Source: Bacillota bacterium (GTDB taxonomy: Bacteria; Bacillota; Clostridia; UBA1381; UMGS1253). From it: 64,000 nucleotides of DNA. This document shows, one piece after another, positions 12,422 to 58,996 of this stretch. The position numbers and the translations under genes were made by a program. The stretch covers positions 11,306 to 75,305 of the forward strand of contig JAKJBW010000006.1 in NCBI GenBank assembly GCA_022706785.1, in the 5' to 3' direction. Under the pieces are notes generated by a model. It saw only the letters and a list, made by a program, of their open reading frames with translations, was not told the origin of the DNA and made no database searches. The first letter of the stretch is position 1, and each line of letters opens with the position of its first letter.

Positions 12422-13312
12422 ATGATATTTCAGGATTCCCAAAAAATAGTTGAGTTTATGCTCAACTTCCAAGGCCTGTTTGATGTGATCCGGGTTGTCG
12501 ATCCCATGAGCCGAAAAGTAGTGGAGTATTTTGAACGAGAACCGTTTCTTCAGGGAGGGCATTGTTACGACTACTGGAAAAACGGCGTCCTTTGCGCCAA
12601 CTGTATTTCATCGCGCGCTTTTTTGCAGGAGGACACCTTTGTCAAAATTGAATACAACAAGGACAAGATCTATATGGCGATGGCAAGCCCGGTGATACTG
12701 CCGGAGCATACTTATGTTGTGGAAATGCTCAAGGATGTCACCGAAACAGGGATTGTTCCCGACATGGAGCGCAAGACCATCGATGAAATTAATGGGATCA
12801 TTGAGATGTTAAACCTTGAAATTGTTACCGATGAGCTGACACAGGTCTATAACAGGCGTTATATCAACGAACAGCTTCCGACCGAGCTTTACGACGCGGC
12901 CACGGAGGGGCTGCCGCTGTCGGTGATTATGATGGACATTGACCATTTCAAGGCAGTGAACGATACCTACGGGCATGTGTGCGGCGATGAGGTTCTGAAA
13001 ACGTTCAGCAGTGTTATCAGATCAGTGGTGCAGGAAAAGGACGGCTGGGTCGCAAGGTATGGCGGCGACGAATTTTTGGTCGTCCTGCCCAATACCGGCC
13101 CCCAAGAAGCAAACACAGCAGCCCAGGACCTGTGCTCTGCGCTTGCCGGAAGAGAGATGGGGTGCACAGGCCGCAAAATATGCGCAACCGTCAGCGTCGG
13201 GACATACACCGTTATGGGGCAGGCGTTAAATGTGGAAGAGCTTTTAGCGCGTGTGGATCAAAACGTATACAGAGCCAAGGAAAGAGGAAGAAACACTGTG
13301 GTTTCGGACTGA
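12422..13312 (+). CDS. Diguanylate cyclase (GGDEF) with Cys-containing N-terminal sensor domain
   Basis: The C-terminal half has DELTQVYNRRY, DIDHFKAVNDTYGH and RYGGDEFLVV (intact GGDEF), plus VYRAKERGRN. The N-terminal ~130 aa carries HCYDYWKNGVLCANC (C-x9-C-x2-C). Confidence 0.85.
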   Translation: MIFQDSQKIVEFMLNFQGLFDVIRVVDPMSRKVVEYFEREPFLQGGHCYDYWKNGVLCANCISSRAFLQEDTFVKIEYNKDKIYMAMASPVILPEHTYVVEMLKDVTETGIVPDMERKTIDEINGIIEMLNLEIVTDELTQVYNRRYINEQLPTELYDAATEGLPLSVIMMDIDHFKAVNDTYGHVCGDEVLKTFSSVIRSVVQEKDGWVARYGGDEFLVVLPNTGPQEANTAAQDLCSALAGREMGCTGRKICATVSVGTYTVMGQALNVEELLARVDQNVYRAKERGRNTVVSD

Positions 13313-46707: not shown

Positions 46708-46788
46708 ACGGCGGGGCGATAAAGCTATCGCCAGGGTTTTGTTTAATGCGGATGATTTTAGTATGTTTTGCGAGGGGGATCGGGTGGT

Positions 46789-48513
46789 GTGAGTAAAAAT
46801 ATCAAGGTTATGCTGACAACGGAGGGAACCTACCCTTTCCATCAGGGAGGCGTAAGCACTTGGTGTGATATTCTGGTGAACAAGCTGGACAGTGTGGATT
46901 TCGTGCTCTACAGCCTGATGATGAACCCGTTTATCTCGCAGATATTTCCGCTCCCCTCTTCAACGCAGCTTGTCAAGGTGCCGCTGTGGGGCACGGAGGA
47001 ACCGAGCGAATACCTTGAAAGCTCATTTTCGCGGGTGTACCTTTCCAAGCAGAGAACTACCGACGATGTTGTGGAAAAAAAGTTTCTGCCCCTTTTCAAG
47101 GCGCTTATCAGAGAGTTTGTGAGCCTTGAAAAAAATCCTGTGCGGCTTGGCGAAACGCTTTATGCGATGTATCTGTATTTTCAGGAGTATGAGTACAAGA
47201 AAAGCTTTAAATCCGATATCACATGGGCCGAATATAAGCGCCTGATACATGACTTTACTGAGGATGAGGAGAACAAAATAGACAGCCCCAGTGTTTATGC
47301 GCTTATTCAGAGCCTGGGGTGGGTATACAGGTTTATGGTCACGCTAAACACCCCGCTTCCCGAGGCGGATGTGGTGCATTCGGCAGCGGCGGCCTTTTGC
47401 GGGATCCCGTGCGTGCTGTCCAAAATTGAGCGGAAAACACCGTATATGCTCACAGAGCACGGCGTGTATATCAGAGAACAGTATCTGTCGCTGTCCAAGC
47501 GGGGATATCCTTCGTTTTTAAATACATTTTTTATACGCATGATCAACTCGATAATAAGCTTAAATTACGAGTATGCCGACATCGTTTCGCCCGTGTGCAA
47601 ATATAATACGCGCTGGGAACAGCGGTTCGGCGTTGTTAAAGAAAAAATAAATGTCATATACAACGGCGTTGACACCGAAAAGTTTGCTCCGGCTTCGGCC
47701 AAAAAAGTCAAGGATGTGCCCACCGTCGTTTCCATAGCCCGTATAGATCCGCTTAAGGATATTATAACGCTTATCGAAGCCACCGAGCTGGTGGCAAGGG
47801 AAATCCCCGATGTCAGGGTGATTGTGTACGGCTCTGTTTCGGTGGACGATTATTATGAGGAGTGCACACAGAAGGTCAAAAGCCTTGGCCTTGAGGACAC
47901 AGTCATCTTTGCGGGGCACACCAGTGATGTGCCCGCGGCCTATAACAGCGGCGACATTATTGCATCGTCGAGCATTTCGGAGGCGTTTCCGTATTCAGTG
48001 GTGGAGGCTATGATGAGCGGCAAGCCTGTGGTTTCAACCGATGTGGGTGGAATTGCTGAAGCGCTTGGCGACTGCGGGATCCTTGTCACGCCAAGGGCGC
48101 CGGCAGAGCTTGCGGAAGGCATCGTCAAACTGCTGCAGAATCCGGATATGGTGGAAGACATGGGGAAACGCGCCAGGATAAGGGCGCTAGAGCATTTTTC
48201 CATTGAAAAGGTGCTGGAGAACCATTATAATACTTATAATGGACTTATTGCAGGAGATTATCAGCTCAAGAAGACTTTGCCTATTTCACTTTTGCAAAAG
48301 CAGAAGTTTTATGCCGAAAAAGGCTATACCCTTTTGAATATGGGCTATATCAAAGAGGCAATCGAGCAGTTTCGGGAGGCGATCAGCGCATCGCCAAACA
48401 CGCCTACTGTTCCGGTGCTTATGCTTGAAATCGCCAATGCCTATAAGAAAATGGGGGAGCACCAAAAAGCAGATCTTGAAATAGAAAAAATCGGCTATAT
48501 CACAGGCGCGTAA
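46789..48513 (+). CDS. pelF: PelF-like glycosyltransferase (DUF3492 plus GT4) with C-terminal TPR extension
   Basis: The N-terminal MLTTEGTYPFHQGGVSTWCDILV matches the PelF/DUF3492 signature (EGTYPYxxGGVSSW). The GT4 core has SISEAFPYSVVEAMMSGKPVVSTDVGG. The last ~90 aa are TPR-like (YAEKGYTLLNMGYIKEAIEQFREAI...IANAYKKMGEHQKA). The start is GTG 46789 or ATG 46810. Confidence 0.8.
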   Translation: MSKNIKVMLTTEGTYPFHQGGVSTWCDILVNKLDSVDFVLYSLMMNPFISQIFPLPSSTQLVKVPLWGTEEPSEYLESSFSRVYLSKQRTTDDVVEKKFLPLFKALIREFVSLEKNPVRLGETLYAMYLYFQEYEYKKSFKSDITWAEYKRLIHDFTEDEENKIDSPSVYALIQSLGWVYRFMVTLNTPLPEADVVHSAAAAFCGIPCVLSKIERKTPYMLTEHGVYIREQYLSLSKRGYPSFLNTFFIRMINSIISLNYEYADIVSPVCKYNTRWEQRFGVVKEKINVIYNGVDTEKFAPASAKKVKDVPTVVSIARIDPLKDIITLIEATELVAREIPDVRVIVYGSVSVDDYYEECTQKVKSLGLEDTVIFAGHTSDVPAAYNSGDIIASSSISEAFPYSVVEAMMSGKPVVSTDVGGIAEALGDCGILVTPRAPAELAEGIVKLLQNPDMVEDMGKRARIRALEHFSIEKVLENHYNTYNGLIAGDYQLKKTLPISLLQKQKFYAEKGYTLLNMGYIKEAIEQFREAISASPNTPTVPVLMLEIANAYKKMGEHQKADLEIEKIGYITGA

Positions 48514-53806: not shown

Positions 53807-53905
53807 TCCTGCCCGCAGCGCCGACCGCCGGGGCAGGACAGTACAGCAAGACGTGCAGCACGAAGAAGGCCACAATACGCCGCAGGCATGAAAGGGGGCG
53901 CAGGC

Positions 53906-55984
53906 ATGTTTCCCATACAGCACACACTGTTTTTGTTAATCAAAGTGCTGCTGGCTTTTGGCATTTTATATATTTTCCTTCCGTCCAGACTGACCGTGTT
54001 TGATGAGCATGGTGATGACTGGACAGACAAAGTCATGGTGTCTATGACCCATTCGCATGTTATTATCATCATCCTGGTGCACCTTTTGGTGGTATTGCGG
54101 ATATATGAAACGATTTCTTTGTTTATCGCCATTATCGCGCTGACGATATTCATCATATCCCTGCGCGCAAAAAGAGCCAGACAGGAGACGGAGGAAAAGC
54201 GCAGTGCGTTTTCCCTGCTGCTGGACGTGGTGGATGGCAGACTGGGCAACAAGACGCAGCGAAGGCAGAAGCTGTCTGAATATTTAAAGAAAGCGCCTGC
54301 GGCACTTATGCGCGGGATAACACATGCCTTTATCCATCCGTTCGACGGGGTGATACTGTTTGCCCTGTTTGGGGTGGCTGCGGCAATAAGGTTTAGCCAT
54401 GCGATGCAATACCTCTACTATGGCGCCTCCGACTGCTACGTTCACCTTGCGTGGGCAAAGTATCTGGGTGTTAATAAGCTTTATTATGACGGTGTTTATC
54501 CTTATGGATACGAGGCCATCATATCGGCGCTGCAAAAGCTTTTCTTTATCGATCCGGCTGTGATTGTGCGGTTTTACGGCGGCATAGGCAGTATGCTGAT
54601 TGTATTTTCCATTTTCTATATTTTAAGAAAGAATATGAAGGGCAAATATATTCTGATTTTCGCAGGTGTTGCGGCGTATGTGTTGGGCACCGAGCTGCCC
54701 AACGAAACCAACAACATCTGGCGTCAGCTGTCCGCGCTGCCGCAGGAGTATGCCGCCGCATTTGTACTGCCGGGCATACATTTCCTCAACGTGTTCTTCA
54801 ACACGGGCAGGAGGCGGTATCTCGCACTGGCGGCTGAGGTTCTGGCAATCACGGTGTTCATCCACTTTTATGCTGCCGCGTTCTTGGGTATCGGTTACGC
54901 TTTTTTGACCTTGTTTCACTTTGGCAAGCTGTTTCGGGGCAAGACATTGCCGCGACTCATTGGATATCTTGGCTTTGGCGGTGCGATAGGCATTTTGCCT
55001 ATTGCGGTAGCGCTCGGGCTGGGCATGAAATTCCACCAGCTGTCCCTAGGCTTCGTTGCAGAAAGCGCTACCGTTTCAACAGCGCTTGACTGGCATACCG
55101 AGATTTTCCGCTACAGGGAAGTTGACCCCACGCTAAAGCTGGTTTTGTTTTGCGCTTTGGCAGTAGCGGTTTATACAGCCCTGCGGGCGTTTTTCAAAAA
55201 AAGCCCGGCATACGCCTCAGCGGCTCCGTTGACGCTTACCATTGCCGCGATGAGTGTATTGTCCTATACTCAGGTCCGCGCTGAGTATATCGGCTTTCCG
55301 TCGCTGCTTGAGTTTTCCAGGGCCAGCACATTCTTCGGTTTTGTGGCTGTGGCGCTGCTTGCCTTGACCATCTATCTTCTGGTCGAGTTTCTGCCCGTTC
55401 ACAAGCTGGTCAAGTATGTTGCCGGGTTTGGTATGAGCGCCTTTGTGCTCATGACTGTGTTCCAGCCGCAAAATTATGCCGTGATGCAGCCTACAGGGGC
55501 AAAGCTTGAGTATGATGAAGCCGCCTACGCGTACTATAAAATAAAAGAGGATTTTCCCATCTTAAACTGGACCATCATCTCGCCGGTTGAACAGTATCAG
55601 CAGAGCATGGGCTACGGATGGCACTACAACCTGTGGGAATTTGTTAAGGACATCCAGATAGACAAGAAGGAAGAGGTATCCTTTCCCACCGATTATGTCT
55701 TCGTGATTGTGGAAAAAAAGCCGCTGAATCAAGCCAAGCCGTATACCGAGATGCCCGAAATTACAACGGAGGATGCGTCACAGCCGTTTCCGGATATGTC
55801 AGGCTCTCCGGAAAAATACTACACCATCTATGAAAACCGCAGAGTCATTGAGGCGAAGGCATATTATTGGATGGAGGAATACATGGGGACAAAGGGTAAC
55901 TTTGCGGTTTACTGGGAAGATGATAAACTTAAAATATATATGTTGAAGCAGGATGGAACAGAGCCGGTCAATCTGGCGCAATGA
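53906..55984 (+). CDS. Large polytopic membrane protein with C-terminal soluble domain (paralog B)
   Basis: About 692 aa from ATG 53906 (AAGGGGG RBS). It is colinear with paralog A, including the C-terminal W-x-I-I-S...EK-K/R block. Confidence 0.5.
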   Translation: MFPIQHTLFLLIKVLLAFGILYIFLPSRLTVFDEHGDDWTDKVMVSMTHSHVIIIILVHLLVVLRIYETISLFIAIIALTIFIISLRAKRARQETEEKRSAFSLLLDVVDGRLGNKTQRRQKLSEYLKKAPAALMRGITHAFIHPFDGVILFALFGVAAAIRFSHAMQYLYYGASDCYVHLAWAKYLGVNKLYYDGVYPYGYEAIISALQKLFFIDPAVIVRFYGGIGSMLIVFSIFYILRKNMKGKYILIFAGVAAYVLGTELPNETNNIWRQLSALPQEYAAAFVLPGIHFLNVFFNTGRRRYLALAAEVLAITVFIHFYAAAFLGIGYAFLTLFHFGKLFRGKTLPRLIGYLGFGGAIGILPIAVALGLGMKFHQLSLGFVAESATVSTALDWHTEIFRYREVDPTLKLVLFCALAVAVYTALRAFFKKSPAYASAAPLTLTIAAMSVLSYTQVRAEYIGFPSLLEFSRASTFFGFVAVALLALTIYLLVEFLPVHKLVKYVAGFGMSAFVLMTVFQPQNYAVMQPTGAKLEYDEAAYAYYKIKEDFPILNWTIISPVEQYQQSMGYGWHYNLWEFVKDIQIDKKEEVSFPTDYVFVIVEKKPLNQAKPYTEMPEITTEDASQPFPDMSGSPEKYYTIYENRRVIEAKAYYWMEEYMGTKGNFAVYWEDDKLKIYMLKQDGTEPVNLAQ

Positions 55985-56004
55985 AGACAGGGGGGATTTT
56001 ACAA

Positions 56005-57843
56005 ATGATTAACGGAGTTTGGGGTTGGTATCAGATACTGGCGGTTTTGGCCGTTCTGCTGTTGCTGTGTATACTGATTGGGATTATAAGCTATTTTCGT
56101 AAAAAAGCCGGCATAGAAAAACAGCTGTATGAAAAGATATTTAACAGCTGTAAGGAGCCGTGCAATATCAATCAGACGATAGGCGGCATTTTTAGGCTGA
56201 TGTCCGCCAAGATAAAGGCAAACGAGTACGGTTTTTATTTATTGGACGGCAAAAACGGCCAGTTTGTGCTTAAGTCTATCCACTATAAAAACGAAAGTGA
56301 CGATAATCTTAATTTGTCTTATTCGGGGTTGATCCCGCATAAGGATATCAAATATGTTTTTCCTGTGGCGCTTGGCCCCGCGGATATTGCAAAAGATGTG
56401 GGTGTCTTAAATGAGGCAAAGACCAAGATAGCGTATGTGCGCATACGTGGCGGCAAGGCGCTTATCCAGCTGGTGGTAGGCAGCAGCTTCAAAATGGATA
56501 AAAACACGGCCGCAGCGCTGAAAAACGTGTCTGAAAGACTGGAGTCCGTTATCCAGTGCCTTATTGAAGCCGAAATTAAAAACACCAAGGCCAAGATTTT
56601 GGAAACCTCCCAGCAGGCTACCAAGAGCATAACAAGTATGATAAGCGGTGACGGTATCCTTAAAATGGCGGTGAGCATGTTTACCAAGACCATCAACGCC
56701 AAGGGCGGATTTTTCCTCAAGCGGGGCGAGGACGGTTATGAGCTGGAGGTAAATACAGGGTTTTCCAAGGAAACGGGCGTCATGTTCAAATACGATGCCG
56801 AGCTGCACGGTTTTCTCTACGATTTTCTGGGCAGTAAAAAGCTTGCTACGCTGAATGTCAACGACAGCAACTTTTCCATCATGCCAATATACTTAATCGC
56901 CGAAGGCGTAAAGCAGATACTGCTGTTTAGGATCGATTATGCGGATAATGTGGGTATTGCGGGTTTTTGGTACGATCAGCCGTATGAAATAGATGAATAC
57001 CAAACCGTGTCGCTGCTGTTGATGTTTTCAAAAATATCTGACGTTTTCGGCAAAACCAAGCAGCTTTCACGCAGCTGTGCCGACAACATCGAGACCTTAA
57101 AGCTCATATCCACGCTGGTTGACGATTTAAGCCCCTACACCGTCGGCTTTTCAAGCCTGATGCAGAAGTATGCCACACTGATTGCAGAGCACATGCGGCT
57201 TCCGAAAGAAGAGGTTGACGAGATCGCGCTGGCGGCGTTTTTAAGCAATATCGGTATTGCAGCGCTTTCATATGACGTTTTCCTTAAGAAGGGCAAATAC
57301 ACTGAATTTGATTATGAAATCATAAAGCTTCACTCCGAGGTAGGCGCGGATATTATTGAGTCGCTCCAGGGGCAGAGCCGGGCGGCGGATATGGTGCGCT
57401 ACCATCACGAGCGCATAGACGGCTGCGGATACCCTTATGGACTAAAAGGTGACGATATCCCCATCGGTGCAAAGATTTTGGCGGTGGCGCAGTTCTTTAT
57501 CGCAAAAATATCGCCAAGGAATTTCCGGGACGCCAGTACATACGATGAGGCCTTGGCAGCCATAGAAAGCGCGGCGGGCACCCAGCTGGACAAAGACGTG
57601 GTCGACAATTTCCTGAGCTGTGTTGCAAACATAAGAAATGAGCACAAATATGATGATGGTTCCTTAGACTACTGCTGGAATATGCGTTTTGTGTCCAGTG
57701 AGCTTTGCAACAAGTGTCCCGTTAAGGTGCGTACCGACAGGAAATGCTGGGAGAGTTCCGCGACGCTGTGTGTGGCGCACGGAAACAAGTGTGAAACGTG
57801 TTTTATTTATACCGAGTATCAGGGAAGAATGAACAAGAATTGA
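56005..57843 (+). CDS. Membrane-anchored GAF-like / HD-GYP protein with C-terminal Cys-rich 'two-CW'-like domain
   Basis: One N-terminal TM (WYQILAVLAVLLLLCILIGIISYF), two GAF-like regions, HD-GYP motifs (HSEVGADII, HHERIDGCGYPYGL), and the tail YCWNMRFVSSELCNKCPV...RKCWESSATLCVAHGNKCETCFIY. The start is ATG 56005 (AGGGGGGA RBS); the alternative is 55981. Confidence 0.8.
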   Translation: MINGVWGWYQILAVLAVLLLLCILIGIISYFRKKAGIEKQLYEKIFNSCKEPCNINQTIGGIFRLMSAKIKANEYGFYLLDGKNGQFVLKSIHYKNESDDNLNLSYSGLIPHKDIKYVFPVALGPADIAKDVGVLNEAKTKIAYVRIRGGKALIQLVVGSSFKMDKNTAAALKNVSERLESVIQCLIEAEIKNTKAKILETSQQATKSITSMISGDGILKMAVSMFTKTINAKGGFFLKRGEDGYELEVNTGFSKETGVMFKYDAELHGFLYDFLGSKKLATLNVNDSNFSIMPIYLIAEGVKQILLFRIDYADNVGIAGFWYDQPYEIDEYQTVSLLLMFSKISDVFGKTKQLSRSCADNIETLKLISTLVDDLSPYTVGFSSLMQKYATLIAEHMRLPKEEVDEIALAAFLSNIGIAALSYDVFLKKGKYTEFDYEIIKLHSEVGADIIESLQGQSRAADMVRYHHERIDGCGYPYGLKGDDIPIGAKILAVAQFFIAKISPRNFRDASTYDEALAAIESAAGTQLDKDVVDNFLSCVANIRNEHKYDDGSLDYCWNMRFVSSELCNKCPVKVRTDRKCWESSATLCVAHGNKCETCFIYTEYQGRMNKN

Positions 57844-57853
57844 GGTATTTTAT

Positions 57854-58633
57854 TTGCGCAGAGAAAACCGACTGCATGGAATTAAAAATTTTACTGTTTA
57901 CTATGGATACGGCAAAGAAGACCAGCTGGCAAGCTATGACCTTTTGGTTTTGGAGCCTAAGGCACGCATGCCGCAGGATATTTATGCGCTTAAACGTACA
58001 GGCAGCACAGTTGTCGCGTATTTAAGCGCGGTGGAGGTAAGCAGCGACGACGAGCTTTTTAGCGCGCTTGGCGAAGAAGACATCCTGCGTTCTAAAGACG
58101 ATCCTCTTATCAACAAGGAATACGGCACACATTATATGGATATTGCTTCGCCCAAGGTGCAGAATCTGCTGCTCTATCGTGTGGAGGATATTTTGAAAAG
58201 CGGCTATGACGGCATTTTCCTCGACACACTCGACGATATTGAATATTTAAATATTTCCCGGGAAAAGCAAAAGGCTATGCTTGCGGGCGCAGGCCGGGTC
58301 GCCAAGGAAATCAGGCGGCTGTTTGCCGATTCGGTTTTAGTGCAGAACAATGGCCTTTTGCAGGTATGTGACTATACTCATGCTTATATAGACGCCATAT
58401 GCTTTGAGAACCCACCGTATAAAACCTGGGGCGGCCTTGTTTGGACAGCAAGCGCCCTTGCCAGGGCAGGACGGCTGCGCAGGGATTTTGGCATACAGCT
58501 TTTGTTGCTGCATGGGCTTTGTGCAAATGATAACAATGTCAAAAACCGTATTTCCCGTTATGTGCTGAAGCATTTTGCAAAGCTCAGGGGCTATTTGTAC
58601 TATGAAACCGGCAGTCATTATAATCGCATCTGA
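57854..58633 (+). CDS. GH114 / TM1410-family TIM-barrel glycoside hydrolase-like protein (PelA-hydrolase/endo-alpha-1,4-polygalactosaminidase-like)
   Basis: SYDLLVLEP...TVVAYLSAVEV...GYDGIFLDTLDDIEY matches the family pattern (DLVVID..AYLSxGE..GFDGVxLDxVD). TTG start. No signal peptide is visible. Confidence 0.65.
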   Translation: MRRENRLHGIKNFTVYYGYGKEDQLASYDLLVLEPKARMPQDIYALKRTGSTVVAYLSAVEVSSDDELFSALGEEDILRSKDDPLINKEYGTHYMDIASPKVQNLLLYRVEDILKSGYDGIFLDTLDDIEYLNISREKQKAMLAGAGRVAKEIRRLFADSVLVQNNGLLQVCDYTHAYIDAICFENPPYKTWGGLVWTASALARAGRLRRDFGIQLLLLHGLCANDNNVKNRISRYVLKHFAKLRGYLYYETGSHYNRI

Positions 58634-58691: not shown

Positions 58692-58996
58692 GGTTGTACC
58701 CGGCACTGACGGTGAGGTAATCGCTTATGGAAAAGGTGTTTTTCGATATTTCGGTTGCGGTGCGGCGCCGGTTGTGATAAAATGAAAAACAATCCGGAAT
58801 ATGTGATACTGTTCCCAAATAAAATCATAGGCTAAAACTTGTCTTTTTTCCGTCTGACTGCGTCAAAGAACCATCGGCAATAAACAAATTATTGCCGAGA
58901 ACTTTTTTCTTGTCATATAAAAAAATCCGGCGTTTTATTTGTCTATTCTTTTATTTAGGAACAGTATAATATATCAGAAAATGTGGGTAAATATAA

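Follow-up and report, generated by a model that had tools for sequence, protein, structure and literature searches.

DvhD of Desulfovibrio vulgaris (PDB 9RBZ, 9RC0) is a membrane-anchored protein in which a sensor domain precedes an HD-GYP domain. Its HD dyad reads SQ; the protein binds cyclic di-GMP (c-di-GMP) without hydrolysing it, and no metal density was observed (PMC13090378). PA2572, a 'YN-GYP' protein, has no detectable activity (PMC3411652). PmGH (4MCW) is a c-di-GMP phosphodiesterase with a GAF and an HD-GYP domain. The Cys-rich 'two_CW_domain' is catalogued as NCBIfam NF045718 (80 positions, curated cut-off of 35 bits); literature searches on two-CW or NF045718 found no relevant paper, and the same was true of searches on HD-GYP proteins with cysteine-rich domains and on chemoreceptors with cysteine-rich or iron-sulfur (Fe-S) domains. 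Here we describe a protein of 620 residues, encoded at 55981..57843 (+ strand) in a 64,000-nucleotide stretch of DNA from a Bacillota bacterium (the window; contig JAKJBW010000006.1). The gene comes from the list of open reading frames (ORFs). Its product has a membrane anchor, two GAF-like domains and an HD-GYP domain that is degenerate, and it ends in a short two-CW-like Cys module, here called the tail. Profile comparisons lead us to regard the tail as homologous to the two-CW domain, within which it makes up a separate short branch; by the curated test it is no member. The feature is real, and the family guess of an earlier prediction made from the sequence (the original prediction) was essentially right. 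In the tail we see a new, shortened form of a catalogued domain, carried by an HD-GYP protein that is probably non-catalytic.

The bases 57664-57843 are the codons of residues 562-620 and the stop codon, and the module itself covers residues 562-616 (57664..57828, + strand), as defined by the alignments A1 and A2, by hhalign and by a model of the tail. The peptide quoted in the original prediction corresponds letter for letter to residues 564-610. Both of the predicted C-W dipeptides (C565-W566 and C589-W590) and all seven Cys (565, 576, 579, 589, 597, 604 and 607) were found at these positions. The proposed spacing C-x10-C-x2-C is right, whereas in the proposed C-x6-C-x6-C-x2-C the first gap is x7 and not x6, so that the true Cys spacing is C-x10-C-x2-C-x9-C-x7-C-x6-C-x2-C, with H600 between the fifth and the sixth Cys. 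The clustering of Cys is not due to chance. Seven Cys lie within 43 residues, compared to seven in the other 564 residues of the protein (binomial P ~1e-6 per segment of 43 residues, uncorrected for the ~577 possible positions of such a segment), and a chance origin of the pattern can be dismissed because of its conservation among homologues.

When the 80-residue tail (P0001) was searched with phmmer against 1.84 billion representative proteins (E<=1e-3), 103 matches were obtained, each a cluster at 50 % identity. In 79 of them the protein is ~560-670 residues long and the tail lies at the extreme C-terminus. Together with the window protein these full-length matches make up the 80 rows of alignment A1. 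Pfam HD_5 was matched in all 80 rows, and no Pfam family was found over the tail in any of them. HD_5 is also present in 20 of the 24 matches of other length, many of which are fragments, which brings the proteins with an HD-GYP-type domain ahead of the tail to 99 of 103. Among these 24 matches, P0050 is without HD_5 and two short fragments are without any family. The match P0088 was rejected as a tail homologue, as it is a false positive built of fibronectin type II repeats. In P0096 and P0105, which are GAF/HD-GYP proteins with a canonical HD motif, the Cys module runs into a STAS domain, which makes a third type of extension beyond the module.

Six Cys (C565, C579, C589, C597, C604 and C607) are invariant in A1, and W590, H600 and G601 are each present in 79/80 members. 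Further conserved positions are P580 (74/80), T611 (72/80), E612 (76/80), R616 (74/80) and W566 (66/80). The candidate ligands are C565, C576, C579, C589, C597, H600, C604 and C607, while W566, P580, W590, G601, T611, E612 and R616 are conserved non-ligand residues. Between C565 and C579, all 80 members have at least one additional Cys, either at position +6 from C565 or at the third position ahead of C579, in which case it completes a C-x2-C knuckle. The knuckle Cys alone occurs in 63 members, the '+6' Cys alone in 13, both in 4, and there is no member with neither. From these counts the two positions behave like alternative suppliers of one (the eighth) ligand. The window protein falls into the minimal class (19/80), whose members have the knuckle Cys (here C576) but lack a Cys at both +5 and +6. 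Alignment A2, consisting of 42 tails, has the consensus L-G-P-C-W-E-M-x-C-x-P-x2-I-C-x2-C-P-A-Y-x6-C-W-E-x2-G-x2-C-x2-H-G-x2-C-x-T-C-F-V-Y-T-E-Y-x2-R. No second copy of the tail was found in its own genome.

The relation to the two-CW domain became visible at the level of profiles. NF045718 scores over its cut-off in 26 of 401 sampled genomes of the phylum, and alignment A3 comprises the 20 best genuine two-CW domains from this sample. Its consensus is N-C-W-E-x-M-x-C-P-x6-C-P-A-Y-x3-E-x-R-C-W-x-I-x-G-T-x-C-G-G-x2-Q-G-x4-K-R-x2-C-M-N-C. Alignment of A2 with A3 by hhalign gave a probability of 97.2 % (E 3.7e-11, score 56.5) over 50 columns, the tail being shortened by two deletions (2 and 6 residues) that follow the fifth Cys. 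In the control, the best of 100 column shuffles of A3 reached 11.7 % probability (E 0.0025, score 19.7). The window tail by itself matched A3 with 52.9 % probability (E 1.4e-4, 34 columns), and the hidden Markov model (HMM) of A3, run with the filters off, ranked the tail top of the 825 six-frame ORFs of the window (E 0.013). In the opposite direction, the A2 profile found seven strong matches in the 401 genomes (E<=2.2e-22, the window's genome included) and, after a gap, matches in 33 more genomes at 1.4e-7 to 9e-4. Those of the weaker matches that were compared by coordinates coincide with canonical two-CW domains found by NF045718.

The curated model itself, on the other hand, does not recognise the tail, which falls below its cut-off. 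Among the 80 family members it matches a single one (E 0.0098), and in a search of the genome it left the tail unmarked, the sole match (13.8 bits) lying elsewhere and containing stop codons. A search with a two-CW HMM was the check that the original prediction had proposed, with a missing match as a sign against it. This search with NF045718 indeed gave no match to the tail, yet homology still stands: it holds despite the failure of the curated model because the profile-profile match exceeds the shuffle controls. The predicted resemblance to two-CW was therefore borne out at the profile level (97.2 % against at most 11.7 % for the shuffles, with reciprocal matches) and not by the curated model.

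In the columns of A2 and A3 the two C-W dipeptides are in register, with C-P-A-[YF] between them. The corresponding positions of the window protein are C565-W566, C579-P580 and C589-W590, and its knuckle reads C-P-V-K, not C-P-A-Y. Six of the seven canonical Cys columns, of which six are invariant in A3 and one is conserved to at least 90 %, align with Cys that are invariant among the tails. At the seventh column (Cys +6), a Cys occurs in 17/80 tail members but not in the window protein, which has C576 instead. Tail and canonical domain share C-W-E, C-P-A-Y, C-W, C and a terminal C-x2-C in the same order, and both appear to lie in the cytoplasmic part of signalling proteins; for neither was a solved structure matched. 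They differ in that the tail is 8 residues shorter in its second half, has H-G in place of the invariant Q-G...K (the A3 invariants between the fifth and sixth Cys being T33, Q40, G41 and K46), mostly swaps the Cys at +6 for the knuckle Cys of C-x2-C, and has a conserved Y-T-E-x3-R helix past the last Cys. The hosts differ as well. Whereas the tail is found on HD-GYP proteins (99/103), the 20 canonical two-CW hosts examined in the same phylum are 19 methyl-accepting chemotaxis proteins and one stand-alone protein of 97 residues. In the chemoreceptors (L005-L023) the domain is located before the membrane region at the N-terminus, between the sensor and the signalling domain, or C-terminally after the signalling domain, and this varied placement suggests that two-CW is a portable module. 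The stand-alone protein (L004:1468-1758, G051) is the best NF045718 match, with 103.6 bits. Two inserts are present in it, one of 6 residues ahead of the C-P-A knuckle and one of 10 residues behind the knuckle.

We also looked for structural relatives of the tail. A model of the tail, folded with A2, had a predicted local distance difference test score (pLDDT) of 89.1 and a predicted template modelling score (pTM) of 0.74 and is made up of short helices, with a further helix at the end; in the full-length model the tail residues score 84-95. Foldseek with the tail model gave 0 matches in the PDB at E<=10, and the best Z from VIA-align against 48,161 chains was 2.7, a value at noise level. Sequence and profile searches of the PDB returned only noise for the tail and for A3, and 0 matches for A2. 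These negative fold searches do not prove a new fold. Three short unnamed clusters were found in the ESM Atlas at 0.88-0.90 and serve as leads only. No Fe-S family of Pfam or NCBIfam matches the protein or the tail. With its seven Cys and single His, the module may reasonably be taken to bind metal. In this minimal set seven Cys and H600 add up to eight ligands, which suggests two four-ligand metal sites; a guess at their division would be C576/C579/C604/C607 and C565/C589/C597/H600. Most likely these would be two zinc sites, either structural or thiol-reactive, and between Fe-S and zinc nothing tips the balance toward Fe-S.

The HD-GYP domain of the window protein (Pfam HD_5, residues 375-540, 57103..57600, + strand, E 4e-31) scored 108.5 bits against a cut-off of 27.2, and its motif HHERIDGCGYP at residues 475-485 conforms to H-H-E-x2-D-G-x-G-Y-P. 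When compared to 5z7c and 4mcw, metal ligands are substituted at several places: G-H-S has become G-F-S (F390), H-D-I-G-K has become S-N-I-G-I (S422, N423) and A-D-x-F-D-A-L has become A-Q-F-F-I-A-K (Q504). The full set of HD-GYP metal ligands is thus incomplete, with the first His, the HD dyad and the late Asp gone. Therefore, the name 'HD-GYP phosphodiesterase' in the original prediction is right for the domain (HD_5), while phosphodiesterase activity is doubtful for this copy; so is the suggested coupling of the module to c-di-GMP hydrolysis, given the same losses. In A1 the HD dyad is present in 27/80 members and missing in 53/80; S-N is found at this position in 45/80, and Q at position 504 in 46/80. 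In view of the loss of four metal-ligand residues and of the precedents DvhD and PA2572, the HD-GYP domain of the window protein probably binds c-di-GMP rather than cleaving it.

The window protein matches DvhD (9rbz) both in sequence (E 7.4e-20) and by Foldseek (E 8e-09). Both proteins have a membrane anchor and a sensor domain before the HD-GYP domain, and the HD dyad is lost in both (SQ in DvhD, SN in the window protein). In contrast to the window protein, DvhD is also without the HH pair, has dCache and PAS domains instead of tandem GAF-like domains, and is not equipped with a Cys module; what it controls is an adhesin protease rather than a polysaccharide locus (PMC13090378). PmGH (4MCW) was the best structural match of the full-length model (Foldseek E 1.8e-11) and shares the GAF-then-HD-GYP order. 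It differs in keeping HD and D where the window protein has SN and Q, and within the matched region it has neither a membrane anchor nor a Cys tail. Close relatives of the window protein are named 'RpfG' or 'HD domain-containing phosphohydrolase' in public records.

The full-length model, folded with A1, reached a pLDDT of 90.0 and a pTM of 0.86, and its top Foldseek matches were PmGH 4mcw, PA4781 4r8z, DvhD 9rbz and tandem-GAF proteins. A single N-terminal transmembrane helix (residues ~14-39, 56020..56097, + strand) consists of the hydrophobic run WGWYQILAVLAVLLLLCILIGIISYF and is followed by R40-K41-K42. By the positive-inside rule, positive residues directly after the helix mark the cytoplasmic side, and we therefore infer from R40-K41-K42 that the remainder of the protein, including the Cys module, is cytoplasmic. 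In the model the membrane helix runs on as a long helix (residues 16-58), followed by a first alpha/beta domain (63-166), a long helix (174-220), a second alpha/beta domain (223-331), the HD-GYP domain (367-554) and the tail (565-619). The two alpha/beta domains (56167..56478 and 56647..56973, both on the + strand) are taken as GAF-like from the secondary structure of the model and from the tandem-GAF matches of Foldseek. Pfam GAF models match at most 6 of the 80 family members, and the window protein is not among them; GAF_3 was matched at 217-332 in one homologue (protein 24). The record of the window protein in the public collection has 612 residues and begins at M9 (56005), not at M1 (55981), and for this reason the true start of the gene is uncertain by 8 codons. 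With the start at 55981, the ATG overlaps the stop codon of the upstream membrane-protein ORF (53888..55984, 698 residues) in the sequence ATGA at 55981-55984, which suggests translational coupling of the two.

Directly downstream of the HD-GYP gene lies a gene for a GH114-like TIM-barrel protein of 259 residues without a signal peptide (57854..58633, + strand; Pfam Glyco_hydro_114, E 1e-11). It begins 10 bases after the HD-GYP stop codon, and there is no terminator in the gap. A terminator-like hairpin with a T-run follows the GH114-like gene at 58874..58898 (+ strand; from a consensus scan, a pattern match only) and is the likely end of the polysaccharide operon. In the phylum sample the tail gene is located within exopolysaccharide loci in the six other genomes that have it. 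These loci contain GT4 or GT2 transferases, a deacetylase with DUF3473, ATP-grasp, a MurJ-like flippase and a PelG-like protein. With tblastn, a homologue of the GH114-like protein was found directly downstream in 6/6 related loci (E 1.6e-39 to 2.9e-16; alignment A4). Moreover, the HD-GYP domain, the tail and GH114 are fused in one protein in P0014 and P0077, both of which belong to the SN class. The pairing in all six loci and the two fusions are the strongest clue to function, and because of them the HD-GYP/Cys-module protein and the GH114-like protein may be taken to act as a unit. One would not expect to find a GH114-like barrel of the PelA-hydrolase type at the cytoplasmic face of a Pel-like machine. 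Characterised PelA-type hydrolases are exported: Bacillus cereus PelAH was purified minus its signal sequence (PMC7112168). The paper on the Gram-positive Pel system mentions HD-GYP in generic terms only.

The original prediction placed the protein at a polysaccharide locus, and this setting proved right. Upstream of the HD-GYP gene, a PelF-like DUF3492-GT4-TPR protein is encoded at 46768-48513, followed by a DivIVA-like protein and a weakly PelG-like membrane protein. Between the latter and the HD-GYP gene lie two large ORFs of 657 and then 698 residues, in which no Pfam family was found. No PelD-type gene was recognised among the scanned ORFs of the locus. PelD, the c-di-GMP receptor of Pel, shares with the window protein a membrane anchor, a GAF domain, a degenerate domain of a c-di-GMP enzyme and the setting in a Pel-like locus (PMC7112168). 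Its nucleotide domain is GGDEF, in contrast to HD-GYP in the window protein, and the likeness is one of analogy only. GGDEF gave no match in the window protein at E<=1, and the PelD combination of GAF with a degenerate GGDEF domain bearing an I-site was not found in it.

The tail was found in 7/401 sampled genomes of the phylum, and the six besides the window's genome come from six different families. One named member is from Paenibacillus sp. With its patchy distribution the locus has the look of an accessory unit, and the polysaccharide locus may have been acquired horizontally. Elsewhere in the window, a GGDEF protein (12422-13312) has an N-terminal Cys motif that the original prediction had related to the tail. 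The motif exists as H47-C48-x3-W52-x5-C58-x2-C61 at 12560-12604, but the kinship was rejected: A2 and A3 gave no match even with filters off, and hhalign reported less than 1 % probability, with its best alignments elsewhere in the protein. No Pfam family covers residues 1-135 of this cyclase (12422-12826), and by these comparisons its motif is separate from two-CW.

The reading that we favour, and that taken as a whole we regard as reasonably probable, is that of a metal-binding short branch of two-CW on a c-di-GMP-sensing HD-GYP protein, with a GH114-like partner and a role in Pel-like control. The last ~55 residues would form an independent, conserved, cytoplasmic metal-binding domain. This shortened branch would have kept the two CW motifs together with a knuckle of the C-P-A-Y type and the C-x2-C at the end; its second half would have become shorter by 2 + 6 residues, and the conserved His-Gly would be an acquisition. 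In this protein the Cys module would cap a membrane-anchored chain of two GAF-like domains and an HD-GYP domain, the latter sensing c-di-GMP without cleaving it, in the manner of DvhD. The HD-GYP protein would work together with the GH114-like protein encoded directly downstream, and its likely task would be the control of a Pel-like exopolysaccharide machine. Several observations weigh against this view. NF045718 run against the tail alone gave 0 families at E<=10, and the tail is without the canonical T...Q-G...K segment, which is shortened by 2 + 6 residues and reads x2-H-G-x2. A Cys at +5, present in 52/80 members, is absent from the window protein. Of the catalytic residues H451, H475 and H476 are kept, as are E477 and D480-G-x-G-Y-P, and residual or altered catalysis is possible. 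Moreover, all six homologues of the phylum sample keep the canonical H/HD/D, which means that the tail and the GH114 pairing are independent of the degeneracy and that the proposed function as a receptor is limited to the SN class. Finally, a search at E<=1e-10 did not find the tail gene in any of the 60 nearest relatives covered (18 genomes from the same family, 42 from the same order), and because of this the gene is regarded as accessory.

Other explanations were weighed on the same data. The original prediction preferred an Fe-S cluster, either one [4Fe-4S] or two [2Fe-2S], that would make the module an oxygen, nitric oxide or redox sensor gating the signalling protein. This is conceivable, though rather improbable in our view. 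Seven to nine Cys, the cytoplasmic location and the conservation would suit a cluster, and so would the occurrence of canonical two-CW domains on sensory proteins (19/20 chemoreceptors). However, the conserved His-Gly and the two C-x2-C knuckles are closer to zinc knuckles than to the classical ferredoxin motif C-x2-C-x2-C-x3-C-P, the eight ligands divide evenly into two four-ligand sites, and neither an Fe-S family match in Pfam or NCBIfam nor a structural neighbour was found. That the protein is instead an active c-di-GMP phosphodiesterase, with hydrolysis tuned by the Cys module, we consider unlikely. The substitutions F390, S422-N423 and Q504 at four ligand positions argue against it, and the HD-less HD-GYP domains of DvhD (PMC13090378) and PA2572 (PMC3411652) were inactive; on the other side stand the HD_5 match (E 4e-31), the intact H451, H475-H476-E477 and D-G-x-G-Y-P, and the 27/80 members and all six phylum-sample homologues that keep every canonical ligand residue and have the same tail. 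It is very improbable that the likeness to two-CW results from convergence of unrelated Cys-rich peptides, or that the Cys form disulfides without a metal. The shuffle control indicates that the match rests on the order of the columns and not on composition, and the agreement extends to non-Cys positions (W after two of the Cys, C-P-A-Y, E after the first CW), although the curated model fails and the second half differs in length and residues. Stable disulfides are made unlikely by the probable cytoplasmic topology.

Beyond the favoured reading of a metal-binding two-CW branch on a c-di-GMP receptor, the module might be a redox- or metal-responsive switch, with a reactive zinc-thiolate or an Fe-S centre, on the dead HD-GYP c-di-GMP receptor of a Gram-positive Pel-like machine, signalling by docking or releasing the GH114-like protein. 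We give this extension little likelihood. If it were true, the protein would be a receptor of a different fold that replaces PelD and joins c-di-GMP with the redox state.

The two-CW domain is catalogued and common on bacterial sensor proteins, yet our literature searches found no paper on it and the structure searches no match. The short variant offers a compact test object of 55 residues, whose structure is predicted with high confidence and whose set of ligands, seven Cys and one His, is clear. It also provides a natural experiment, as one ligand is supplied from either of two positions. In addition, the variant marks a protein family without a curated model, in which tandem GAF-like domains, an HD-GYP domain and a Cys module are combined and whose genes, located in exopolysaccharide loci, always have a gene for a GH114-like protein without a signal peptide as partner; about two thirds of this family have lost catalytic residues. 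If the family is a c-di-GMP receptor, it would represent a second solution besides PelD for the control of the Pel-type biofilm polysaccharide by c-di-GMP in Gram-positive bacteria, and a GH114-like protein on the cytoplasmic side of the membrane would for the first time have a function.

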